DNA of 64,000 nt from Felis catus (Eukaryota): positions 92,506,001 to 92,570,000 of the forward strand of contig NC_058368.1 in NCBI RefSeq assembly GCF_018350175.1. Direction: 5' to 3'. The position numbers and the translations under genes are program-made. The notes under the pieces are model-generated. The model was given only the letters and a program-made list of their open reading frames with translations. It was not told where the DNA came from and ran no database searches. Shown in pieces: positions 17,254 through 59,717 of the stretch (positions are counted from its first letter, which is position 1; the number at the start of each line of letters is the position of its first letter).

Positions 17254-18355
17254 CGTTAAAAAGCCAAAATTTGACAGAGTAAATTTGAAAATATAATTGG
17301 CTTTATTAAATGATTCATGAATTGGGAGATGTCCCACCTAGCATATGGAGAAGAGCTCTGTGGGAGCTCCAGAAAAGGAAATGTTTTTCAAAGTGGGGGT
17401 GTAGGGCATGGGGGGAGTGGTGGGTGTAGGTGGTGGAGGGGAGGGGGGGAGTTAACAAAGAATCCATTGTTTTAGGCTTGGTGGCCCTCCTAAGGGGAAT
17501 TACCTTCTGGCTGTTGACCAGGAAATTCTAATTTGGCTGGTTAAAGGTCATGGTGAAGTTTTGGGGTGGTGGGGTGGTCCAAAGCTGATGGCCAAGAAAG
17601 AATTCTTGAAGACATCTTTGGTACAAAAATGTAATTTTATTCAAGCATGGGGACAGGACCCACGGGCAGGAAGAGCTGCACTGGGGTCCTGATGGGTAAC
17701 TCATTATATACCTTCAGGTTGGGAGGGGGTCAGGGACTGAATAAAGCTCTAAGAAATTTTGGAAGCAAGGTTTCCAGGATCTTGAGGGGCTATCTGTTGC
17801 TAGGGAAACACCATTTATTACAGTTTAATAAAACCTCAGCCATGAGACCCTTCAGATGTATATCAGGAGGCCATAAGCTTGGAGTGTGATTGCCAGCATG
17901 TATTCTGGGGCAGTTGGGATAAAGGAAGTAGATTTACAGGATCCTCAAGGTTGGGACAATGTTAAGCCAAGGTTCTCTTTTGCCCCCAGCAAAGTGTCCT
18001 CATCCAGGCAGCTGAGCTCCTGCCTGTTTCAAGGACTTGTCAGTAGGCTGCAGGCAGTAAAGGAATTTAATTTTTCATTTGCCTTAGGTTCCCACATCAC
18101 CATGGCAAGTGCTTAACCCCTTTTCCTTTCTTCTTGGGTAGCTGGGAGTGACCGAGGAATATCACACAGATGCCACCTGGGGTGGGGGGTGTGCCAGTCT
18201 GTATTTTGCCATCAGCTTGCCCCAAGCTCCCTCATCAGTTACATCCTGGTGGGGGAGGGGAACCAACAGTTAGGTTAAGTGCTAAGTCTTAGTTTGCTGA
18301 CATGGGGCCTTAACCTAAGTGACACCATTTTGGTCCGTTGGTTTACTTTTTAACG
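17254..18355. mobile_element. Older LTR-like element interrupted by the 17551-18237 LTR
   Basis: Terminal inverted ends CGTTAAAAAG...CTTTTTAACG; sequence continues on both sides of the nested LTR. Confidence 0.5.
17551..18237 (-). mobile_element. Solo LTR, second ERV1-type family (here called family B)
   Basis: Aligns along most of its length with 49413-50121 and 58979-59717; TG..CA termini; imperfect TSD GTCA/GTTA; sits inside an older LTR-like element. Confidence 0.85.
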
Positions 18356-19390: not shown

Positions 19391-19819
19391 TGATGTGGGA
19401 AACAAAGGCAGAAGGAAATGGCAGGTAAAATTAAATTTCCTTGTAGCCTGCAGCCCATTGACAGAGCCCATGGACTTGGAGGCAGACAGAGGAAAATGTT
19501 TCTCCAGGAACTCCCTCTGTCTTAATGTTAATGCTTCGCTAGAGGGGAAAACCGCCTTAGCTTGACAACAGCTAGGAAACCTGGGAGTCTTCTTTAGCAT
19601 ATGAAAATCTCATTGGAAACTTCCCCTGGACTTTACCTTCTCAAACTCCACCGCATGTAACCTGTCTCTCCTGGTCCCTGGGCAGCTCTTTCTGCCCATG
19701 GGTGCTGTCCCCGTGCGTTAATAAAATCACCTCTTTGCATCAAAGGTGTCTTCAAGAATTCTTTCTTGGCCATCAGCTCCAGACCCCACGAACCCCACTA
19801 TCACCGCCAAACCTGATCA
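19391..19819 (+). mobile_element. Solo LTR, short variant related to family B
   Basis: TGATGTGGG...CCTGATCA; shares the 3' part (AATAAAATCACC...CAAGAATTCTTTCTTGGCC) with 21540-22464 and with the reverse complement of 17551-18237; imperfect TSD GTCAC/GTAAC. Confidence 0.8.
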
Positions 19820-19828
19820 GTAACAACA

Positions 19829-20509
19829 TTTTAAGTTTTTTATTTTGAGAGAGACAGAGACAGCGCAAGTTGGGGAGGGGAAAGAGAGAGGGAGGGAGAA
19901 TCCTAAGCAGGTTCCATGCTGTCAGCACAGAGCCCAACATGGGGCTCAAACCCAGGAAATTGAGATCAAGACCTGAGCTGAAACCAAGAGTCCCATGCTT
20001 AACCTGAAAGAGCGGACCTACACCGGCCGACTCCATCTTGTTCTGTGTCCTCCACCTTGAGTGACTATGTCCCTGACATGGCCCCTTTCCGGGAAAATCA
20101 CAGAAACCTCAGACCACGCTTCCTCTCCTTGAGTAACCTCCCGCTCACCCATTCAAACTTCCCAATCAAAACACACCCGGCAACCTGCGTAAGGGACTCT
20201 GACCCTTCCCAAGCCAATTGGCTGAGGCCACGACCCTTCCCCAGCCAATCAGCTGAGGCCACGACCCTTCCCCAGCCAATCGGCTAAGGCCACAGCCATT
20301 ACCTCACCAACTGCCCCTAGACCCCTGTAAAACCTTTGTGCTTTTGAAACTCCCTGGCTCTCACCTATGCGTTGGTGCAGGTAGGGAATTGAACTTGAGC
20401 TCGCTCAAATAAAGGCTCTTTGCTTTTGCATCGGACTCGGCTCCCTGGTGGTCTTTGGGGATCGTGAATTCTGGGCATAACAAACCCACTGAGCCACCCA
20501 GGCGCCCCC
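19829..20509 (-). mobile_element. CAN-SINE split by the solo LTR at 20005-20482
   Basis: ...ATGCTTAACC [LTR] AACCCACTGAGCCACCCAGGCGCCCC. Confidence 0.9.
20005..20482 (+). mobile_element. Solo LTR of the same family as the provirus, inserted in a SINE
   Basis: TGAAAGAGCGGACCTA...CTGGGCATAACA termini shared with the proviral LTRs; 4-bp TSD AACC (20001-20004 / 20483-20486); SINE sequence resumes on both sides. Confidence 0.95.
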
Positions 20510-21539: not shown

Positions 21540-22464
21540 TGATGAGGGAGCAGAAGGCAAGCTGACCCCCACAAACACTCCCCACCCCCAGGGGGGATGT
21601 GTGTGATAGTCCTGGGGCACTCCTGGTGGCTCAAGAACAAAAGGAAAGGGGAAAAACAATTGGTTAACTGATAGAGATCACAGTCCTGCAGGACTTGAGT
21701 CTCCATTAGTTTACAACTATCTTAGTAAACTCCAAAAAAAAAAAAGGAAGTCTTATCAATAGCCTAATCTCCAGAAACCTGTAGACTCAGTTTCCTGAGC
21801 CCAAACATCACTCCTCCACAGTGATATGGGGAACAAAGGCAGAAGGAAATGGCAGATAAAATTAAATTTCCTTATAGCCTGCAGCCCATTGACAGACACT
21901 TGAGGCCAGCAGAGTAAAACATTTCTCCAGGAACTCCTATGTCTTAATGTTAATGCTTTGCTAGAGGGAGAACAACTTTTTTTTATTAAAAATTTTTTTT
22001 AATGTTTTATTTATTTTTGAGAGAGAGACAGACAGAACATGAGCAGGAGAGGGGCAGAGAGAGGGGGAGGACACAAAATCCAAAGCGGGCAACTCCAACC
22101 CACTAACTGTGAGATCATGACTTGAGCCAAAGTTGGTTGCTTAACCAACTAAGCCACCCAGGTGCCCCTAGGGGGAAAAACAACCTTAGCTTAACAATAA
22201 CTAGGCCTCCAGTATCTTGTGAGTCTTCTTTAGCATACGAAAATCTCATTGGAAACTTCCCCTGGACAGTACCTCCCCCAACTCCCAAATACATAACCGG
22301 TGTCTCCACAGGGTCCCGGGGAAGCTCTTCCTGCCCATGGGTCCTGTCCCGTGCTTCAATAAAATCGTCATTTTTACACCACCATTTTTGCACCAAAGAG
22401 GTCTCAAGAATTCTTTCTTGGCTGTTGGCTCCGGATGCCCCACCATTACCCCAAAACTGCATCA
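21540..22464 (+). mobile_element. Solo LTR related to family B, containing a nested SINE
   Basis: TGATGAGGGAG...AAAACTGCATCA termini match the reverse complement of the 17551/49413/58979 copies; SINE inserted at about 21977-22168. Confidence 0.85.
21977..22168 (-). mobile_element. CAN-SINE (internally deleted) inside the 21540-22464 LTR
   Basis: Reverse consensus; TSD-like TAGAGGGAGAACAAC / TAGGGGGAAAAACAAC. Confidence 0.85.
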
Positions 22465-49361: not shown

Positions 49362-50288
49362 AGGTTTTATTTATTTTAAAAGGTTTATTTATTTATTTTT
49401 GAGAGAGGCAGATGATGAAGTTTTGGGGTGATAGTGGGGGAAGGGTCCGGAGCCAACAGCCAAGAAAGAATTCCTGAAGATGTCTTTGGTGCAAAAAGGT
49501 GATTTTATTAAAGCACAGGACAGGACCTGTGGGCAGAGAGAGCTGCACTGGGGGTCTGACGGGTAGCTCATTATGACCCTCAGGTTGGGAGGGGGTCAGG
49601 GATAGAGTAAGTCTCTAAGGAATTTTGGAAGCAAGGTTTTTCTGGGACCTGGAGGGGCTAGCTGTTGCTAGGGAAACACCATTTATTACAGTTTAATAAA
49701 ACCTCAGTCATGACACCCTTCAGATGTATATCAAGGGGCCTAAGCTTGGAGTGTGATTGCCAGCATATATCCTGGGGCAGTTGGGATAAAGGAAGTAGAT
49801 TTACAGGATCCTCAAGGTTGGGACAATGTTAAGCCAAGGTTCTCTTTTGCCCCCAGCAAAGTGTCCTCCTGGAGGCAGCTGAGCTCCTACAGGGAGGTCA
49901 CTATCCTGGTGTCAAGGACTTGTCAGTGGGCTATAGGCAGTAAGGGAACTTTCTTTTCGTTTGCCTTAGTTTCCCACATCACCATGGCAAGCACTTAACC
50001 CTCTTTCCTTTGTTTTTGGGTAACTGGGAGTGACCGAGGAATATTACACAGATATCACCCGGCAGGGAGGGGTGATGCTAGCTTATACTTTGCCCTCGGC
50101 TTGCCCCATGCTCGCTCATCACAGAGACAGTGTGAGCGGGGAGGGGCAGAGAGAGAGGGAGAGAGAGAATCCCACTGTCAGCACAGAGCCCAATGGGGGG
50201 GGGGTGTGGAACCCAGGAAACTGTAGATCATGACCTGAGCCAAAACCAAGAGTGGGACGCTTAACCGACTGAGCCACCAAGGTGCTCC
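49362..50288 (-). mobile_element. CAN-SINE split by the LTR at 49413-50121
   Basis: Tail ...TTTTGAGAGAGGCAGA [LTR] CAGAGACAGTGTGAGCGGGG...CCACCAAGGTGCTCC. Confidence 0.88.
49413..50121 (-). mobile_element. Solo LTR family B, inserted in a SINE
   Basis: TGATGAAG...CTCATCA; perfect TSD CAGA (49409-49412 / 50122-50125); SINE tail on the left and SINE body on the right. Confidence 0.92.
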
Positions 50289-51895
50289 AAGACCCTTTTT
50301 AAATAGTTTTAAACTGCAGTTTCATCCATTTCGAGGTCCCCAGATGCACCCCCCCAATTGATCTGGTAACTAGTTTCTCTCTTGGGGGTAAAAGCATTAT
50401 CCTCTTCTGGACAGTGAGTGTGAGAACCATAAAAAAATAGCACATTAGTGAAAAGTTCTCTTCCCTGGGAAAGAAACAGGCCTTTGGGTATCAGCTTTAG
50501 AGTAAATCCTAAGCTGCCCTCCAAAAATGGGGGATTTGGAGAGACCCAGCCAAAAAAAAAAAAAAAAAATCCTTTAACTTGGAATCATAAATTCTAAAAT
50601 TCACCTTGGGGATGGGTTATTGCCCCAAAGCTCCTCTTTTATAATGCAGACACCCTGGGGAGCTGTGCCACTTTTAAGGGACTAATTTGCCATTCAAAGC
50701 TCCTCAGCTTGTCTTTTAAGCTGAAGGGTGGTCTGGAGTTGCCTGCAGAGAATGGGCTGGAGGGGTGGGGCAGGGCTGAAAAGAGGAAGTGGAGGGGAGA
50801 GGGAAGAGTTGATGCCAGCCCCAGGAATCAGTGAGTCAGGACACCTTGGTCTGCTCTGGTGCTGCAACCAATTCACTGAGCAGCCTTGGGAGGTCAAAGG
50901 TCAACTTTTGGAGGCCCCGCCCAAAATGGTCTGCTGTTCTCTGTGGTTCTCTGTCCTGTGTTTCATCTGTTAGCTCCTACCGCTCCGATTTTAGGTGGAG
51001 CTCAAGAGATAGACCTCAAGGGCAGGCGAACAGTATCAAACTTTCTGGAATATTCCAGAAAGGTTTACTTGCATGCCGGCTTTTACCCATTTGGGCCCTC
51101 AGCATTATTAATCACGGCTGTTTTCAATTCTTGGTCTGATAATTCCAACAACCCTGCCTCCTCTGGGTCTGACACCTGCCCTGTGTCTTAAAACTGTTTT
51201 TTTTTTTTTTTGGTTTTTTGGTTTTTGGGGTTTTTTTTGGCCTTTTCGTATGCCTTGTAATGTGTTTGTGATAGCCAGGCAGGACTGACCAGATCAAAGG
51301 AACTGCTGTTAAATGGGCTTTAGGAATGTGGTGGAGAGGTGTGGGGGCGGGGAGGGGTCTATAGTCCTCTGAGTAAGGCCTCAGTCTTTCCCTGTGCCTT
51401 TACCTCTGCACTAGAAATGTCACTAGTGTTTCTCAGGTTCCTTCTGCCCCATTTAGGCAGCACAGGATGGGTAAAGAGGGCTGGACTTATGTATCTCCCT
51501 TTCCTCAGGTCAGTTAGGCTCTGGTTAACCACTTTCTCCTGAGGACAGACCTTATTAAGAACAGAATGCCCAGGTGTATTTCAAAATGACTCCTTCTCTC
51601 TCCCTCTGGAAGCACGAGTGAGGATTTTTCTCCAATACTTACCATGAGAACCAGCTTCAGCTCCTAGGGGTAAATCTCACAAAAGTTTGGGGGCCTCCCT
51701 CTGACGGGGACCCCTGTGGTTTTTAACTCTCAGGCTTGTCCACGCTAAGCTTCCAGCAGTTAACTAATTGCAATTCAGGTTTTGCGGCTCTGGGGCTGGT
51801 TTCCATGGAGGCTTCTGCTGGGGTGTGTTGGTATTCTTTGTATTTTCCTGTCTGTCTGTCCTTCCAATTCCAGGGCCTCTTGTTTATCCTGTGAC

Positions 51896-52304
51896 TGAAA
51901 GAGCGGACCTAGACTGGCCGACTCCATTTTGTTTTGTATCCTCCATTTTGAGTGACTATGTCTCCAACATGGCCCCCTTTCCGGGAAAACCGCAGAAAGA
52001 AATTCCCGTTCAAACTTCCCGTTCAAACTTCCCGTTCAAACCACGCCCGGCAACCTGCGCAACGGGACTCTGACCTTTCCCCAGCCAATCGGCTAAGGCC
52101 ACAACCATTACCCCACCAACTACCCTTAGATCCCTATAAAACCTTTGTGCTTTTGAAACTCCCTCTCTCTCTCTCCGGCATCTCACCGCTGCGTCTGTGC
52201 AGGTAGGGGATTGAGCTCGAGCTAGCTCGAATAAAGGCTCTTTGCTTTTGCATCAGACTCGGCTCCCTGATGGTTTTTGGGGATCACGAATTCTGGGCAT
52301 AACA
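51896..52304 (+). mobile_element. 5' LTR of the provirus (409 bp)
   Basis: Starts TGAAAGAGCGG, ends GGCATAACA; CCAAT 52085-52089, TATAAAA 52135-52141, AATAAA 52230-52235; three copies of 13-mer TTCCCGTTCAAAC; aligns to the 3' LTR. Confidence 0.97.
52085..52141 (+). promoter_or_regulatory. LTR U3 core promoter (CCAAT box and TATA box)
   Basis: CCAAT at 52085 and TATAAAA at 52135, 50 bp apart, in the usual gammaretroviral U3 position. The TATA is intact here but reads TATGAA in the 3' LTR and TGTAAA in the solo LTR. Confidence 0.8.
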
Positions 52305-52306
52305 TT

Positions 52307-52324
52307 TGGGGGCTCGTCTGGGAT
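52307..52324 (+). promoter_or_regulatory. Primer binding site, tRNA-Pro
   Basis: TGGGGGCTCGTCTGGGAT, 2 nt after the 5' LTR; 17/18 match to the MLV-type Pro PBS TGGGGGCTCGTCCGGGAT (C>T at a CpG). Confidence 0.93.
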
Positions 52325-52692
52325 CCCTAAGACCCCCGAGGGACCCCCGACCCAGAGAGCCTGACTGGCCACAGTTAGTGTCTGTTCGTTCCCTGTCTCT
52401 TCTCTGTGAGCTCATTTCTGAAATTCTGGTAGTGCCTGGCGCGGTCTAAGTGGACGCACTGGAGGACCATGGGCTGGGAATTTTGGAAGATGTTCTGATC
52501 CTCCCTTCTGGAGGGATGTGGATTCCCCTCAAAGGTCTGTGACAAGGCGGGTCACTCCTGCCGGTCGGCGTGAGGCCGTCGTCTAGCTTTCAGTTTTGCT
52601 TCCATGGAGTTGGAAGACTGTTTCTAAGGGCCCTCTGTTTGTATGTTTCTGTGTTTTTCTGTTTTGTTCTGTGGACTTACTGGACGGACGTT

Positions 52693-54312
52693 ATTGGACA
52701 GACTCAGACTACTCCTCTAAGTATTATGATTGATCACTTTAAGGATGTCAGGGGAAGAGCTAACAACCTCAGTATGGAAGTCCGAGAGGGTCGGTGGCAG
52801 GTTTTTGTTCTAAAGAGTGGCCAGCTTTCCATGTCGGATGGCCACCAGAGGGAACCTTTGACCTCCCTATCATCCACCAAGTCAAGGGTATCATCTCTCG
52901 GCCCAAGACGGGCCATCCTGATCAGCTCCCTTACATTATCACTTGGCAGGACCTTGTAGAAGACTCACCCTCTTGGCCTAAGCCCTTCCTAGCCCCACAC
53001 CCTCCAGAGCCAAAACCCATTCTTGCTTTGCAGGGGACAGAAGAAGGAGAACAAGAAAAGTCTTACCCAGCCTTCAGCACCCCTCTACCCTGTCCTACAG
53101 GGGGGGACTGAAGAAGAATTAATTTTTCCTCCCCCGTATAACCCCCCTAGGATGCCAGAAGAACACCAACCTCCCCCTCCGGGGGAGGCAGATGCTGTTC
53201 CGAGAGTGGGAGGTGGAAACGCTCCAGTGGGAAACCCGCCCTTTACCAGACAGAGGGCTCAGAGGGAGCAATCCATCTCCACCGCTGACTCCACTATTCT
53301 GCCCCTGAAAGCCACTGGACCTCCAGACGCGGAGGGGAATCAGCCCCATCACTATTGGCCTTTCGCCACTAGTGACCTCTACAATTGGAAAGCTCAGAAT
53401 CCTAAGTTTTCCGAGAAATTGGCAGGGCTTATTGATCTATTAGACTCTGTTCTTTTTACCCATCAGCCCACGTGGGATGATTGCCAGCAGCTTTTGTAGG
53501 TCCTGTTCATGACTGAGGAAAGAGAAAGTATCCTCAATGAGGCCCAAAAACTAGTTCCGGGTGCAGACAGGAATCCCACCACCAACCAGGCTCAGATAGA
53601 TGCCTCCTTCCCTTTAACTCAGCCCAAGTGGGATTTCAACACAGCAGAAGGTAAGGAGAGGCTCCAGGTCTACCGCCAGACTCTAATGGGGGGTCACTGA
53701 ATGGCTGCTAGGAAACCAACCAATTTGGCTAAGGTAGGAAATGTGCAACAGGAAAAAGATGAATCTCCAGCTGCCTTTTTAGAACAGATCATGGAGGCAT
53801 TCCGTACCTATACTCCCATGGATCCAGAGGCTCCAGAAAGCAAGGCAGCTGTTATCATGGCCTTTGTAAACCAATCAGCCATAGACATTAGGAGAAAATT
53901 ACAGAAAATAGATAGACTAGGAGAAAAGACTGCAGGACTTACTGGTGGTAGCCAAAAAGGTATCTAATAACTGGGAGCCTCCTGTTATTAGATGCTCCCA
54001 TCTAATAACTGGGAGCAGGCTCACCCCATGGCGGCTGCCAGCAGTAAGCAGACTCGAGACCTGGCCAGAATACTACTAGCTACCACTTCTGACTCCCCCG
54101 AGGAACGAGACTGCCGTCTCCAGCAGCTGGCAGACAACTCAAGAGGAGGTAAAGGAACCACCAACGGGGGGAGGCAGAGGCTGCAGAAAGATCAGTGTGC
54201 ATACTGCGAGGAGATAGGGCATTGGGCCCGAGATTGTCTGAAAAAGGCTGGTGGGAAGGGAAATAAGACTGATCAAGTGAAAGTCTTAGAGCTAGATGAA
54301 CTGAGTGATTAG
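52693..54312 (+). pseudogene. gag: gag (MA-p12-CA-NC), disrupted
   Basis: Start codon decayed to ATT (I-GQTQTTPLS); MA motif [19 protein letters not shown]; late domains PSAP and PPPY; CA YWPFATSDLYNWK and THQPTWDDCQQLL; MHR QEKDESPAAFLEQIMEAFRTYT; single CCHC knuckle CAYCEEIGHWARDC; stops at 53497 and 53698 plus several frameshifts; ends at TAG 54310-54312. Confidence 0.95.
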
Positions 54313-54372
54313 GGGAGTCAGGGTTCGGATCCTCTCCCTGAGCCCAGGGTAACTCTTAAAGTGGAGGGGACC
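54310..54372 (+). promoter_or_regulatory. gag-pol stop-codon readthrough signal (TAG, purine-rich spacer, pseudoknot)
   Basis: TAG GGGAGTCA GGGTTCGG...CTGAGCCC stem with loop CCTCTCC complementary to downstream GGAGGGG; pol continues in the same frame, as in MLV-type gammaretroviruses. Confidence 0.8.
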
Positions 54373-56851
54373 CCTGTTGACTTCTTTTTTGACACCGGAG
54401 TACAACATTCGGTCCTCTGCACCCCACAAGGAAAACTAGCCAGCAAGAAGTCCTGGGTACAAGGGGCAACTGGTATGAGCCAGTATTCATGGACTACCCG
54501 AAGAACGGTAGATGTGGGGATGGGCCAGGTATCCCACTCCTTTATGGTAATACCGGAATGCCCCTACCCGCTGTTAGGACGGGACTTACTGACCAAGATT
54601 GGAACTCAGATAACTTTCAGACAAGGGGGGCCTCAGGTCACCAATGGCAAGGGCCACCCCATCCAGGTCCTGACCATGAAACTGGAGGATGAATACCGTC
54701 TCCACCAGGAGGCGCTCCCGAGAGAGGATAATATAGACAGATGGCTACAAGAATTCCCCTCGGTTTGGGCAGAGATGGTGGGGATAGGACTAGCCACTCA
54801 CAGGACCCCAGTCCTGGTAGAGCTCAAGCCAGGAGAAGGTCTGGTAAGAATCAAACAATACCCCATGTCTCAGGAGGCCCGGAAGGGGATCCAGCCACAC
54901 ATCCAGAGACTATGAAGCCTGGGGGTACTAGTTCCTTGCCAGTCTGCCTGGAACACCCCCCTACTGCTGGTCAAAAAGCCTCACACAAATGACTATCAAC
55001 TGGTACAAGACCTCCGGGAGGTAAATAAGAGGGTCACGGACATATACCCAACTGTTCCCAACCCATATACTCTCTTGAGCTCCTTGGCGCCCTCCAGGGT
55101 CTGGTATACTGTACTAGATTTAAAGGACGCCTTCTTCAGTCTGCCGCTGGCACCCCAGAGCCAACCCTTGTTCGCCTTCGAGTGGCATGATCCGGAGGAG
55201 GGCTACACACCTGGACACGGCTGCCTCAGGGGTTTAAAAATTTGCCCACCATCTTCGATGAGGCACTACACGAGGGCCTGGGTGAGTACAGAAAGGAGCA
55301 CCCTGGCCTCAGCCTCCTACAGTACGTAGATGACATCCTGATTGCTGCCGACACAGCCGAGGACTGTGAGCGAGGGACTCAGAACCTGTTGGCTACCCTG
55401 GGGGCCTTGGGGTACAGGGCAACCATGAAGAAGGCTCAGATATGCAGGGAGAGGGTAAGTTACCTGGGATACATCCTGGAGGTCAGACAGCAGCAGTTAT
55501 CAGATGCCAGAAAAGAAACTGTCCTAAAGATCCCTACTCCCACCTCCCAAAGGGAAGTAAGGGAATTCCTAGGATCGGCCGGCTACTGCTGCCTCTGGGT
55601 TCCGGGTTTTGCTGACAACTACCGGACCTGGGAGACCCAGTTTTACCAGACCAGCCCAAATACTCCCAGGAGGAGTTACAGCGGATCAAGAAACCCCCCC
55701 TCCCCCCACCATGGCCCAGGAGATAAAGGGATGGTGGTATACACCTAACAAGGAGCTCGTGCTGCCAGACCGGCTCAGAGTCTCAGTATTAGAGCACATG
55801 CATCGGTCTGCTCACATGGGGGCCCGAAAATTAAAAGACTTAATCCGACATGCCATAATCAAGATTCACCAACAGGACACCAAAATAGAGCAAGTTGTAT
55901 CTGCCTGCAAGACCTGCCAACTCACCAACGCGAGAGCCACATCAAATAAAAAAGGAACCAGGCTCAGAGGCATCAGACCGGAAGCCCAATGGGAGGTTGA
56001 CTTCACTGAAGTTAAACCAGGAAAGTATGGTTATAAATATCTTTTAGTATTTACAGACACCTTCTCTGGCTGGGTGGAGGCATACCCAACCAAGCATGAA
56101 ATGGCTCAGACGGTGGCTAAGAAGCTACTAGAAGACATCTTACCCAGGTATGGTTTTCCTGCCATGGTAGGATCAGATAATGGACCAGCTTTTATCTCAC
56201 AGGTAACACAGGCAGTAGCCAAGGCGGTGGGGGCAAACTGCAAATTACATTGTGCTTATAGGCCCCAGAGCTCAGGACAGGTAGAAAGAATGAATAGAAC
56301 CCTAAAAGAGACCCTTACCAAATTAACCATGGAGACTGGCGGGGACTGGGTGACTCTCCTACCCTACGCCCTTTACCGGGTTAGGAACACTCCTTACACC
56401 CTGGGTTTTACTCCCTACGAGATCATGTTTGGCAGGCCACCCCCTATTATTCCCAACCTTCCAGCTGAACTTCTTGCTCAGTTTAAAGATCAAGAACTTT
56501 TTCTTTCCTTGAGAGGGCTCCAGAGGGTGCATGAGGACATTTGACTGCGCCTCCGTGCCATCTATGAGGCCAGCCCAACCCCGACACCTCATCAGTACAG
56601 GTGGGGAGACTGGGTCTACGTCAAGAGACACCGCTGAGAGACCCTCAAGCCACGCTGGAAGGTACCCTACATCGTGGTGCTGGCAACCCCACCGTTCTTA
56701 AAGTAGATGGCATCACTACCTGGGTCCATTACACCCACGTTTGGCCAGCGGACCCTCCATGATCCAGAAGGACTTTGTCACACGATGGGCCGTCAATTGG
56801 GACCAACACGACCTGCTCAAGCTGAAGCTACAGCGCATTCAACCCACCTAA
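54313..56851 (+). pseudogene. pol: pro-pol (protease, partial RT, integrase), disrupted; RT connection/RNase H deleted
   Basis: PR DTGVQHSVL and [46 protein letters not shown]; jump at about 55614 from WVPGFA to the IN N-terminus; [34 protein letters not shown]; premature stops at 54913 and 56542; frameshifts near 55207 and 55700; probable ancestral stop TAA 56849-56851. Confidence 0.95.
55711..56544 (+). CDS. Open integrase-core ORF (277 aa), C-terminal domain truncated; translation unproven
   Basis: ATG in CCACCATGG context; uninterrupted HHCC zinc-binding and DDE catalytic core; ends at premature TGA 56542-56544. Confidence 0.35.
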
Positions 56852-57525
56852 TATTGGTAACTCTGTTAGCTCTGCTTGTCACTGCTCATGTTGCCGGGAG
56901 TCCCCACACCCCCCAAAACATCACCTGGCAGATCATAGACACCAGCTCGGGGACAATACTTAATCAGACTTCCCAGAGCCACCCCAGGGACACTTGGTTC
57001 CCAGAACTTTGCGTAGACCTCCAAACTCTGCTCCTCTTGTCACCATACGCCCCTGGATTCCATGCGCAGAACCTTTATTTCTATGTCTGCCCCGGCCACT
57101 CTCGCTCGAGCACATGCGGGGACACGGCTGACTACTTTTGCACCTCCTGGTCATGTGTCTTGACAGGGCACATCTGGTGGACCCCACCATGCACCGGAGA
57201 TCTTATCGTGGTAAAGCGGCCCAGTGGCCCCCGACCGCCATATGCCTGGGGGCGCGGTAATCCCATAGTTATATCCTTTACAAGCCAAGGTAAAAAAACA
57301 ACAGGATGGGAGAGTGGAAAAACTTGGGGACTCAGGATATATGACCGGGTTAGGCTGGGAGCCAAGGACAAGGAAACGTTATTTACCCTCCGAATGCAAG
57401 CGACTCCCCTTGCCCAGCAGTCCCCCACAGGGGTAGGACCCAACCAAGTACTAGTTCCCCGACCTGCCCCCGCCCGGACGGCCACATTCCCCCTGGACAG
57501 TCACCTCTCTGTAGTGAAACCCTAA
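56785..57525 (+). CDS. env: Truncated Env: signal peptide plus SU receptor-binding domain (246 aa; an upstream in-frame ATG at 56707 gives 272 aa)
   Basis: ACGATGG Kozak context; hydrophobic core [17 protein letters not shown] followed by SPH; SU motifs [37 protein letters not shown]; sequons NIT and NQT; stop TAA 57523-57525 after a 15-aa out-of-frame tail. Confidence 0.7.
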
Positions 57526-58322
57526 CAGTCCCTAGGGAGACAGTGTATCTACTTCCTCCTGAAAATGCATGGTGGGCCTGTTCCAGCGGCCTCACTCCCT
57601 GTGTCCACTCCCAGGTCCTTAACTCCTCAAAGGAAAGCTCCATACTTGTGCAGTTGATTCCCAAGTTAGTGTACCATTCGGGGGAAGAAATACTTAACAG
57701 GTTAGGCTCTGCTAACCCCCGAAGTAAAAGAGAGCCTATTACAACCTTAACTCTGACTGCGCTCTTGGGACTGGGATTATCTGGGGCAGGGACCAGAATA
57801 TCCTCACCTGTCATCCAGGACAAAAACTACCAAACCCTAAGGGCAGCCATTGACTTAGACATAGAAAGAATTGAGAAATAAATTTCTCATTTATAGGAAT
57901 CCCTTACTTCCTTATCAGAAGTAGTACTCCAAAAGAGAAGGGGATTAGACTTATTATTCATGCAGCAAGGAGGACTATGTGCAGCCCTAGGGGAAAAATG
58001 TTGCTTCTGTGTTGATCACTCAGGGGTCGTAAAAGAATCTATGGCCCTCATAAGGGAAGGGCTACAAAAACGTCATAGAGAGAACAATCTCAGTCCTGGT
58101 ACGAGTCTTTGTTCAACTGGTCTCCCTGGTTAGCTACCCTCATCTCGGCCCTTGCCGGACCCCTCACCATCCTGCTCCTACTAGTAACCCTCGGACCCTG
58201 TATCAACAGGCTGGTCCAGTTTGTCAGGGACCGCGTGGGGGCCGTCCAACTAATGGTCCTCTGTGCTCAGTACAAGCCCTAATAACAGAAGAGACAAAAT
58301 AGAAATGCAGCCGGTCCTATGA
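57480..58322 (+). pseudogene. env: env 3' part (SU C-terminus and TM), disrupted
   Basis: In a different frame from the [14 protein letters not shown]...[19 protein letters not shown], furin site RSKR, fusion peptide [38 protein letters not shown]6CC (CAALGEKCC), TM anchor; stops at 57879 and about 57894 and a later frameshift. Confidence 0.93.
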
Positions 58323-58344
58323 CTGGGTCCGTAAGCTACATGAC

Positions 58345-58354
58345 AAGGGGGGAA
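58345..58354 (+). other. Polypurine tract
   Basis: AAGGGGGGAA immediately before the TG of the 3' LTR. Confidence 0.9.
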
Positions 58355-58752
58355 TGAAAGAGCGGACCTAGACTGGCCGACTCCATTTTGTTTTGTGTCC
58401 TCCATCTTGAGTGACTGTGTCCCCGACATGGCCCCCTTTCCAGGAAAACCGCAGAAAGAAATTCCCGTTCAAACTTCCTGTTCAAACCACGCCCGGCAAC
58501 CTGCACAACGGGACTCTGACCCTTCCCCAGCCAATCGGCCAAGGCCACAACCATTACCCCATCAACTGCCCCTAGATCCCTATGAAACCTTTGTGCTTTT
58601 GAAACTCTCTCTCTCTCTCTTTCCGGCATCTCACCACTGCATCGGTGCAGGTAGGGGATTGAGCTCCAGCTGGCTCAAATAAAGGCTCTTTGCTTTTGCA
58701 TTGGACTCGGCTCCCTGGTGGTCTTTGGGGATCACGAATTCTGGGCATAACA
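58355..58752 (+). mobile_element. 3' LTR of the provirus (398 bp)
   Basis: Same termini as the 5' LTR; AATAAA 58678-58683; two copies of the 13-mer; about 25 substitutions versus the 5' LTR by manual count. Confidence 0.97.
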
Positions 58753-58978
58753 GTGACCTCCATTCTTTTACAAATCTAAGAAGAGTTGTTGATGTTTTCA
58801 GTCTGTTCAGCTTGAGATGGAATGGTGACTTCCAAACTCCTTATATGTGGAGTTGGGAAGCAGAAATGCGGGAGGTTTATTTTATCATAGCTAGTGTCAA
58901 TCGATTCTGAAGTATGGCCTTATCTTTACAGCACAATCTGTTACTCTCTGCCTCTGGGTTGATGTTAAAAAACCCTAC

Positions 58979-59717
58979 TGATGAAGTTTTGGGGTGATGG
59001 TGGGGTGGTCCGTTGCTGACGGCCAAGAAAGAATTCTTGAAGACGTCTTTGGTGCAAAAAGGTGATTTTATTAAAGCACGGGACAGGACCTGTGGGCAGA
59101 AAGAGCTGCACTGGGGTTGTGACGAGAACTGATTATGTACCTTCAGGTTGGGCGGTGGTCAGGATAGAATAAGTCTAGAGTAAATATTTTGGAAGCGAGG
59201 TTTCCAGGACCTTGAGGGGCTAGCTGGTGTTAGGAAAATACCATGCATTACTGTTTAATAAAACCTCAGTCATGAGACCCTTCAGATGTACATCAGGGGC
59301 CATAAGCTTGGAGTATGATTGCCAGCATATACCTTGGGGGGCACTGAGATAAAGGACGTTTCCAAAGGAATTTTTATATGTTAAAGCAGACTTACAGGAT
59401 CCTGGAGGTTGGGATGATAAGCCAAGATTCTCTTTTGCCCTCAGCAAAGTGTCATCATTGAGGCAGCTGAGCTCCTAGAGGGAGGTCGCTCTGCCTGTTT
59501 CAAGGACTCCCATGGGCTGTAGGCAGTAAGGGAATTTAATTTTTCATTTGCCTTAGGTTCCCACATCACCACGGCAAGCACTTAACCCTCTTTCCTTTGT
59601 TCTTGGGTAGCTGGGAGTGACTGAGGAATATTACGTATTCCTCTGGGGAATAACATGGTGGGGTGGGGTGCTGCTAGCCTGTATTTTGTCCTCAGCTGGC
59701 CCCACACTCCCTCATCA
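58979..59717 (-). mobile_element. Solo LTR family B
   Basis: TGATGAAG...CTCATCA; TSD CTAC/CTAT; collinear with 49413-50121. Confidence 0.9.

Follow-up and report, generated by a model that had tools for sequence, protein, structure and literature searches.

FeLIX and Refrex-1, the soluble truncated envelope (Env) proteins of cats, come from young, Felis-restricted families. FeLIX, which derives from enFeLV and is 273 aa long, holds a signal peptide, VRA and VRB without the C-terminal SU or TM, and Refrex-1, encoded by ERV-DC7 and ERV-DC16, is made up of a signal peptide plus receptor-binding domain (RBD) and ends in or near the proline-rich region (PRR) by stop codons at aa 252 and 298, without TM or ISD. 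Further papers drawn on are PMC11019853, PMC5923473, PMC10878261, PMC4133949 and PMC12980914. PMC4643047, which treats FERV, ERV1-1_Fca and FcERV_gamma6 as one family, reports that, of 43 cat proviruses, 9 retain remnants of env and none of these is functional in its judgement, and by its S1 Table all nine env-bearing copies are orthologous in tiger; truncated soluble products are not discussed in parts 1-4 of 9 of its main text. Bat MLERV1 and pangolin MPERV1 are the named relatives of FcERV_gamma6 (accessible parts of PMC4643047 and PMC4199695). At the level of titles and abstract beginnings, no truncated soluble env from FcERV_gamma6 or MLERV1 was found described; most subscription papers were outside reach and unseen supplements could bear on this.

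The window analysed here is a stretch of 64,000 nucleotides from Felis catus (NC_058368.1, positions 92,506,001 to 92,570,000), and it carries an env ORF for which a sequence-only reading had proposed a FeLIX/Refrex-1-like role. The locus is best read, with a probability of about 0.7, as a neutrally decaying, env-retaining FcERV_gamma6 provirus in which the frame for signal peptide and RBD survives by chance. The ORF and its parts are as follows.

56785..57525, + strand: truncated env ORF, 246 aa and stop (translation, Pfam, solved-structure matches)
56785..56898, + strand: signal peptide, aa 1 to about 38 (hydropathy, helix 11-36; predicted cleavage before SPH, from FeLV/MLV RBD chains)
56899..57414, + strand: RBD, aa 39 to about 210 (solved-sequence, AlphaFold and Foldseek matches)
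57480..57485, + strand: deletion junction, six bases read in both frames (PRR start / SU C-domain)
57487..57522, + strand: 12-residue out-of-frame tail, predicted disordered (alignment, AlphaFold model)
57480..58283, + strand: remnant of SU C-terminus, furin site and TM in another frame (stops 57879 and 57894; frameshift near 58075, by eye)

Translation of 56785-57525 (+) gave the 246 codons with every motif that had been quoted, and the ATG at 56785 was seen to have the strong Kozak context ascribed to it, with A at -3 and G at +4. The open frame extends further 5′, an in-frame ATG at 56707 giving 272 aa. Pfam TLV_coat covers aa 33-223 of the 246-aa ORF (E 6e-17), and the four solved sequences that match it are FeLV-B and Friend MLV RBDs. 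The AlphaFold model, made from a 20-row alignment with a mean pLDDT of 64, shows a helix at 11-36, strands up to aa 208 and a low-confidence tail from aa 214, and likeness to gammaretroviral RBDs was borne out by Foldseek, where the four matches with E ≤0.001 are the same FeLV-B and Friend MLV domains. The signal peptide claimed earlier agrees with a single hydrophobic peak at aa 21-34 and the modelled helix, and the claimed lack of a TM anchor with a top 19-residue hydropathy of 0.92 after aa 40. By hydropathy and the structure model, signal peptide and complete RBD lie within one ORF; the domain has cysteines at 76, 102, 111, 119, 124 and 136 and N-glycan sequons at 45 and 60, and the five cysteines of the paralogous mature domain are retained. 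The proposed FeLIX/Refrex-1 architecture is thereby found: a signal peptide, a complete RBD, no TM or ISD, an end in or near the PRR, at its start, and a length within the 230-439 aa of such proteins given in the accessible part of PMC9245640.

The ORF lies in a provirus that spans 51896-58752 and is flanked by identical 5-bp target-site duplications, with these features upstream and downstream of env.

51891..51895, + strand: left target-site duplication, 5 bp (identical 5-mer mate at 58753-58757)
51896..52304, + strand: 5′ LTR, 409 bp (CCAAT 52085, TATAAA 52135, AATAAA 52230)
52307..52324, + strand: primer-binding site, the sequence directly after the 5′ LTR, which we take to be of the tRNA-Pro type
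52693..54312, + strand: gag, broken (frameshifts near 52806, 53045, 53930 and 54000; stops 53497 and 53698)
53651..53652, + strand: splice-donor-like GT within gag (where felid gene models of paralogous copies place their junction)
54313..55616, + strand: pro-RT, broken (stop 54913, frameshift near 55205, deletion of about 1 kb at 55616 relative to P0039)
55625..56851, + strand: RNase H end and integrase, broken (frameshifts near 55706, 56690 and 56755; stops 56542 and 56635)
56496..56523, + strand: env splice-acceptor-like site, pyrimidine tract and AG, intact (junction from paralogous gene models)
56531..56761, + strand: upstream ATGs, four in all, following the acceptor and preceding the env start (frame shared with env at 56707 only, not at 56531, 56564 or 56759)
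58355..58752, + strand: 3′ LTR, 398 bp, with the polypurine tract just upstream (AATAAA 58678)

Mapping agreed with the earlier description of gag, PR/RT and TM as broken, and integrase is broken also. A short rearranged stretch at 53984-54015 in gag resembles, by eye, an inverted duplication of the bases immediately upstream and falls at a change of frame. The top 4 of 255 Pol/integrase matches are P. onca (92%), P. uncia (91%), M. daubentonii (86%) and C. nilssonii (84%), those ranked after them fall to 61-65%, and among the 255 no pangolin match was named at the 84-92% level. The closest Pol relatives are confined to felids and vesper bats, which is the FcERV_gamma6/MLERV1/MPERV1 pattern. 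The LTR end equals the KIT FERV1 LTR at 30 of its 31 first bases (Fig. S1 of PMC4199695, by eye), the env 5′ and integrase stretches are near-identical to KIT FERV1 in that source, and the LTR R-U5 also matches by eye. Judged by these comparisons the provirus is a member of FcERV_gamma6/ERV1-1_FCa/FERV1 and not of ERV-DC or enFeLV; FcERV-gamma4, considered at first, was dropped once the Pol relatives and the KIT sequence indicated gamma6. An alignment of the two LTRs over 396 sites shows 25 differences, including 9 CpG-type transitions, and with the felid rate of 1.8e-9 per year given in PMC4643047 the age is 11.5 My without and 18.6 My with the CpG-type sites. Integration is accordingly estimated at about 11-19 My ago, in agreement with the older, different gammaretroviral lineage supposed from the sequence, and this LTR age fits the old env-bearing class of PMC4643047, an env remnant being present.

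Other repeats were seen in the window. A same-family solo LTR of 478 bp with a 4-bp target-site duplication, about 12% from the proviral LTRs, lies at 20005-20482 (+) in what is, by its look, presumably a carnivore SINE, and two 74%-alike copies of a third repeat (19539-19797 and 22168-22453) stand on either side of it. Three copies (17550-18237, 49413-50121 and 58979-59717), 78-84% alike, belong to an LTR-like element of about 700-750 bp with TG...CA ends and are probably solo LTRs; two of them lie on either side of the provirus, at distances of 1.8 kb and 0.2 kb. The region from 17.5 to 22.5 kb of the window is dense in LTR-like pieces.

How the ORF ends is clear from alignment, codons 1-234 aligning with relatives and the final 12 not. 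The short out-of-frame tail noted earlier is present, at 12 of 246 codons; its cause is a deletion and not a point stop. Relative to P0012 and P0015, the 57480 junction has lost about 110 codons, among them those of the PRR and the CWLC motif, and the frame starting at 57480 matches Myotis Env aa 340-391 at 75%. Because 57480-57485 belongs to both readings, the junction suggests a deletion that arose via 6-base microhomology. An A-run at about 57290-57298, where P0003 and P0035 go out of frame, is intact in the window ORF and may be a frameshift hotspot. The sequence-only reading had also supposed that GNP in place of the usual CNP motif could be decay, which is contradicted by the alignment: since GNP recurs in 9 out of 10 further felid rows, the remaining one having lost frame before this point, and since the partner cysteine present in bat copies is missing alongside it, GNP is a trait of the felid lineage or family.

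Whether the frame is longer than chance allows was assessed from a lesion map of about 1863 codons (P0060 and P0039 as references, a stop map and one frameshift by eye), which has 18 lesions, 14 of them before env, a count that may be low as the gag part absent from P0060 lies outside it. The longest lesion-free runs in the dead gag-pol reach 304 and 278 codons, the latter (about 278) in the integrase region, against 244 for the run that holds env. A given stretch of 210-234 codons stays free of lesions with a probability of 0.09-0.13, at least one of nine env-bearing loci does so over such a length with a probability of 0.57-0.72, and a run of at least 234 codons occurred somewhere in the provirus in 94% of 100,000 random placements. 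The contrast drawn earlier between an open env and a broken gag/pol therefore stands for the open frame itself and not for its length, which is no longer than chance (0.09-0.13 at this place, 0.94 anywhere). Over aa 39-233 the window departs from the commonest felid residue at 9 sites, of which 3 (120, 126 and 197) fall in columns invariant across seven outgroup lineages, with 2.1 expected, giving a weak indication, at little power with 9 changes only, that the window ORF does not avoid conserved sites. Under another definition of conservation, 3 of 75 deep-conserved sites are changed in the window and 0 in cheetah, Geoffroy's cat and leopard. Retention beyond neutral expectation was not found by the length or site-pattern tests, both of low power. 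The nearest relatives by tree are P0005 and P0003 (support 94/85 and 90/90), known from short ENA contigs and related to the locus by the protein tree, and they leave frame near aa 147 and 172, within the RBD.

Promoter, donor-like, acceptor-like and poly(A) signals are intact at the locus, including the CCAAT and TATA of the 5′ LTR (52085, 52135) and the AATAAA of the 3′ LTR (58678) reported earlier as retained. The Kozak context and LTR signals are uninformative on this locus because they are shared with the env-less young KIT copy. The paralogous gene models P0032 and P0034 map to 53152-53649 and then from 56517 onward. All four upstream ATGs have a pyrimidine at -3, and because all stand in this weak context they would lower rather than abolish translation; one of them opens a frame that overlaps the env start, and the KIT FERV1 copy has, by eye, no ATGs at the four matching places. 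In six RNA runs a share of 0.17-0.41 of the 56200-58800 words is present, and these matches are not evidence of expression because paralogues could supply them. CpG observed/expected is 0.75 in the 5′ LTR and 0.53 in the env ORF, against 0.26 in gag, 0.32 in RT and 0.30 in the flank, which could mean less germ-line methylation or just ancestral composition.

In the neutral reading the provirus would, after integrating about 11-19 My ago, have gathered its some 18 stops, frameshifts and deletions, and the first env lesion would happen to fall just after the RBD as the frame-shifting deletion of about 110 codons, with the frame for signal peptide and RBD as its by-product. On a transcript started in the 5′ LTR and spliced to 56524, ribosomes would have to scan past the four ATGs, and the product would be a secreted glycoprotein of about 208 aa with changes at conserved sites. 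Nothing shows selection keeping the frame; the whole RBD, the intact expression signals and the higher CpG of 5′ LTR and env ORF count against neutrality. The latter two would also suit an active bystander without selection or a decaying former defence, where a transcribed and secreted RBD can occupy the receptor and selection is weak or ceased with the extinction of env-bearing FcERV_gamma6 viruses in cats. Spliced gene models of paralogous copies use the same acceptor, and truncated Envs of 230-439 aa were secreted and antiviral in 8 of 10 assayed cases in the accessible part of PMC9245640. We consider this unlikely, as upstream ATGs have been gained, the conserved positions 120, 126 and 197 have changed, one VRA change altered activity in the same source, and the exact protein is absent from 15 billion collected sequences, the last being weak evidence.

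Still less probable is the kept receptor-interference factor of the sequence-only reading, a co-opted FeLIX/Refrex-1-like restriction factor under selection here whose secreted RBD blocks viruses sharing a transporter receptor. Its architecture and length match those of FeLIX and Refrex-1 and its RBD fold is whole, but the proposal is not supported, in view of the length at neutral expectation, the lack of avoidance of conserved sites, the gained upstream ATGs and the nearest relatives frameshifted in the RBD. Moreover, its frameshifted end occurs in 0 of the 24 relatives found, and an end common to several felid species occurs in a paralogue and not at this locus. That the 57480 junction is an assembly error and the real env end differs is very improbable. 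The family is a multi-copy repeat, and even the best-matching DNA runs contain only 0.53-0.60 of the words sampled from 56200-58800, a shortfall that repeat collapse or a different species may explain; against this, the window contains no N, target-site duplication and LTR pair match, a second large deletion is present in pol of the same provirus, and microhomology junctions are usual for real deletions. For the preferred reading of neutral decay it follows, if correct, that a FeLIX-like frame appears by chance in about 1 in 10 proviruses at this level of decay, and domestication should therefore not be concluded from architecture alone.

The paralogues matter more than the window ORF. Its two best matches are NCBI models named as CBY3 isoforms, from cheetah and Geoffroy's cat, which cluster with a leopard model and with ENA and Logan proteins. 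Five proteins (P0001, P0002, P0026, P0031 and P0033) run 238 aa from the env ATG to one common in-frame end, a frame of signal peptide and RBD present in cheetah, Geoffroy's cat and leopard, where the two CBY3-named NCBI models extend upstream through pol frames; P0030, which may be a chimera, has the same end and a divergent 5′ part. Accessions of the 238-aa locus are XP_053075433, XP_045340786 and XP_053763577. Distances within the five are 0.9-5.6%, compared with 8.2-9.0% to the window ORF, which is therefore their paralogue. The window as orthologue of the CBY3-named locus was rejected on this distance, on its lack of the signal-peptide and integrase residues shared by the group, and on its grouping with P0003/P0005. 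At 420 aa each, the cheetah and leopard models agree in 398 residues, and from proteins only we infer one 238-aa locus common across Felidae; against one locus counts that the leopard model is on a 150-Mb contig, versus 236-240 Mb, and lacks the CBY3 name. Going by the position of CBY3, the domestic-cat copy of this 238-aa locus may be the full-length row at 91.51-91.52 Mb of NC_018723.1 in the coordinate archive of PMC4643047, as far as accessible. Constraint on the 238-aa frame was not detected between cheetah and leopard (11/238 env against 11/182 upstream differences, P = 0.52) or in changes at conserved columns (0/8 and 1/13, P = 0.12 and 0.15), and the tree did not have the resolution to show the group as a clade.

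Outside this group, six proteins of 253-257 aa with a common end (P0006, P0007, P0009, P0165, P0168 and P0169), 83-95% identical, form a clade including Pipistrellus kuhlii (support 98/97). Only 2 of their 57 changes lie at conserved columns, against an expectation of 14.0 (P < 1e-4), a sign of strong constraint obtained with a column reference that includes other bat sequences. The bat locus has the accessions KAF6382692 and XP_045440911. Among the groups found, in a search whose 135-431 aa length filter favours truncated frames and hides species with broken ones, this appears the best domestication candidate. The eight-member P0004 cluster has a 276-aa frame of signal peptide and RBD with a common end, on up to 10 Logan contigs, and gave no constraint signal (1/5 changes at conserved columns, P = 0.65); the seven-member P0016 cluster, which groups with an otter protein, has a 244-aa frame of the same kind with a common end on up to 59 Logan contigs. 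Of env relatives, 0 of 300 pattern matches in JGI metagenomes and 0 of 8 in IMG/VR were confirmed, and the 2624 candidates for a longer Env relative yielded 2 fusion models but no Env of full length, which is weak evidence. The 238-aa felid and the 253-257-aa groups look like stronger borrowed-antiviral candidates than the window ORF. It is tentatively proposed that the FcERV_gamma6/MLERV1/MPERV1 env was domesticated several times as a soluble RBD. That at least the bat or the felid paralogue is a selected gene has somewhat below even odds; a selected gene at the window locus alone is improbable. The instances would be the 238-aa form in cheetah, Geoffroy's cat and leopard, the 253-257-aa form in vesper bats and possibly the 276-aa form, all of which would block one common receptor, with the window ORF as a further, decaying felid instance. 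If a truncated env was indeed kept for more than 10 My across Felidae and independently in bats, in both cases from one cross-order virus, convergent soluble-Env defence would reach into deep time, and the proteins would serve as natural ligands in the search for the receptor of this virus, which passed between three mammalian orders.

Compared with its own family, the window provirus is without the env deletion common in young FcERV_gamma6 copies such as KIT and has its own deletion after the RBD. The likeness to Refrex-1 lies in the signal peptide and RBD and in the end in or near the PRR without TM or ISD, whereas Refrex-1 originates from ERV-DC, with ERV-DC7 about 2.8 My old, and the window ORF from FcERV_gamma6. 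Expression of Refrex-1 extends to most tissues, and the secreted protein works through CTR1 (as given in the accessible parts of the sources). Refrex-1 is ended by stop codons and the window ORF by a frameshifting deletion. From FeLIX and FeLV-B the window ORF differs in much shorter variable regions and the lack of a cysteine pair in VRB, and identity to the FeLV-B RBD is only 27% in structural alignment, yet its closest solved fold and best Foldseek match is that same FeLV-B RBD (1lcs, E 3.5e-9).
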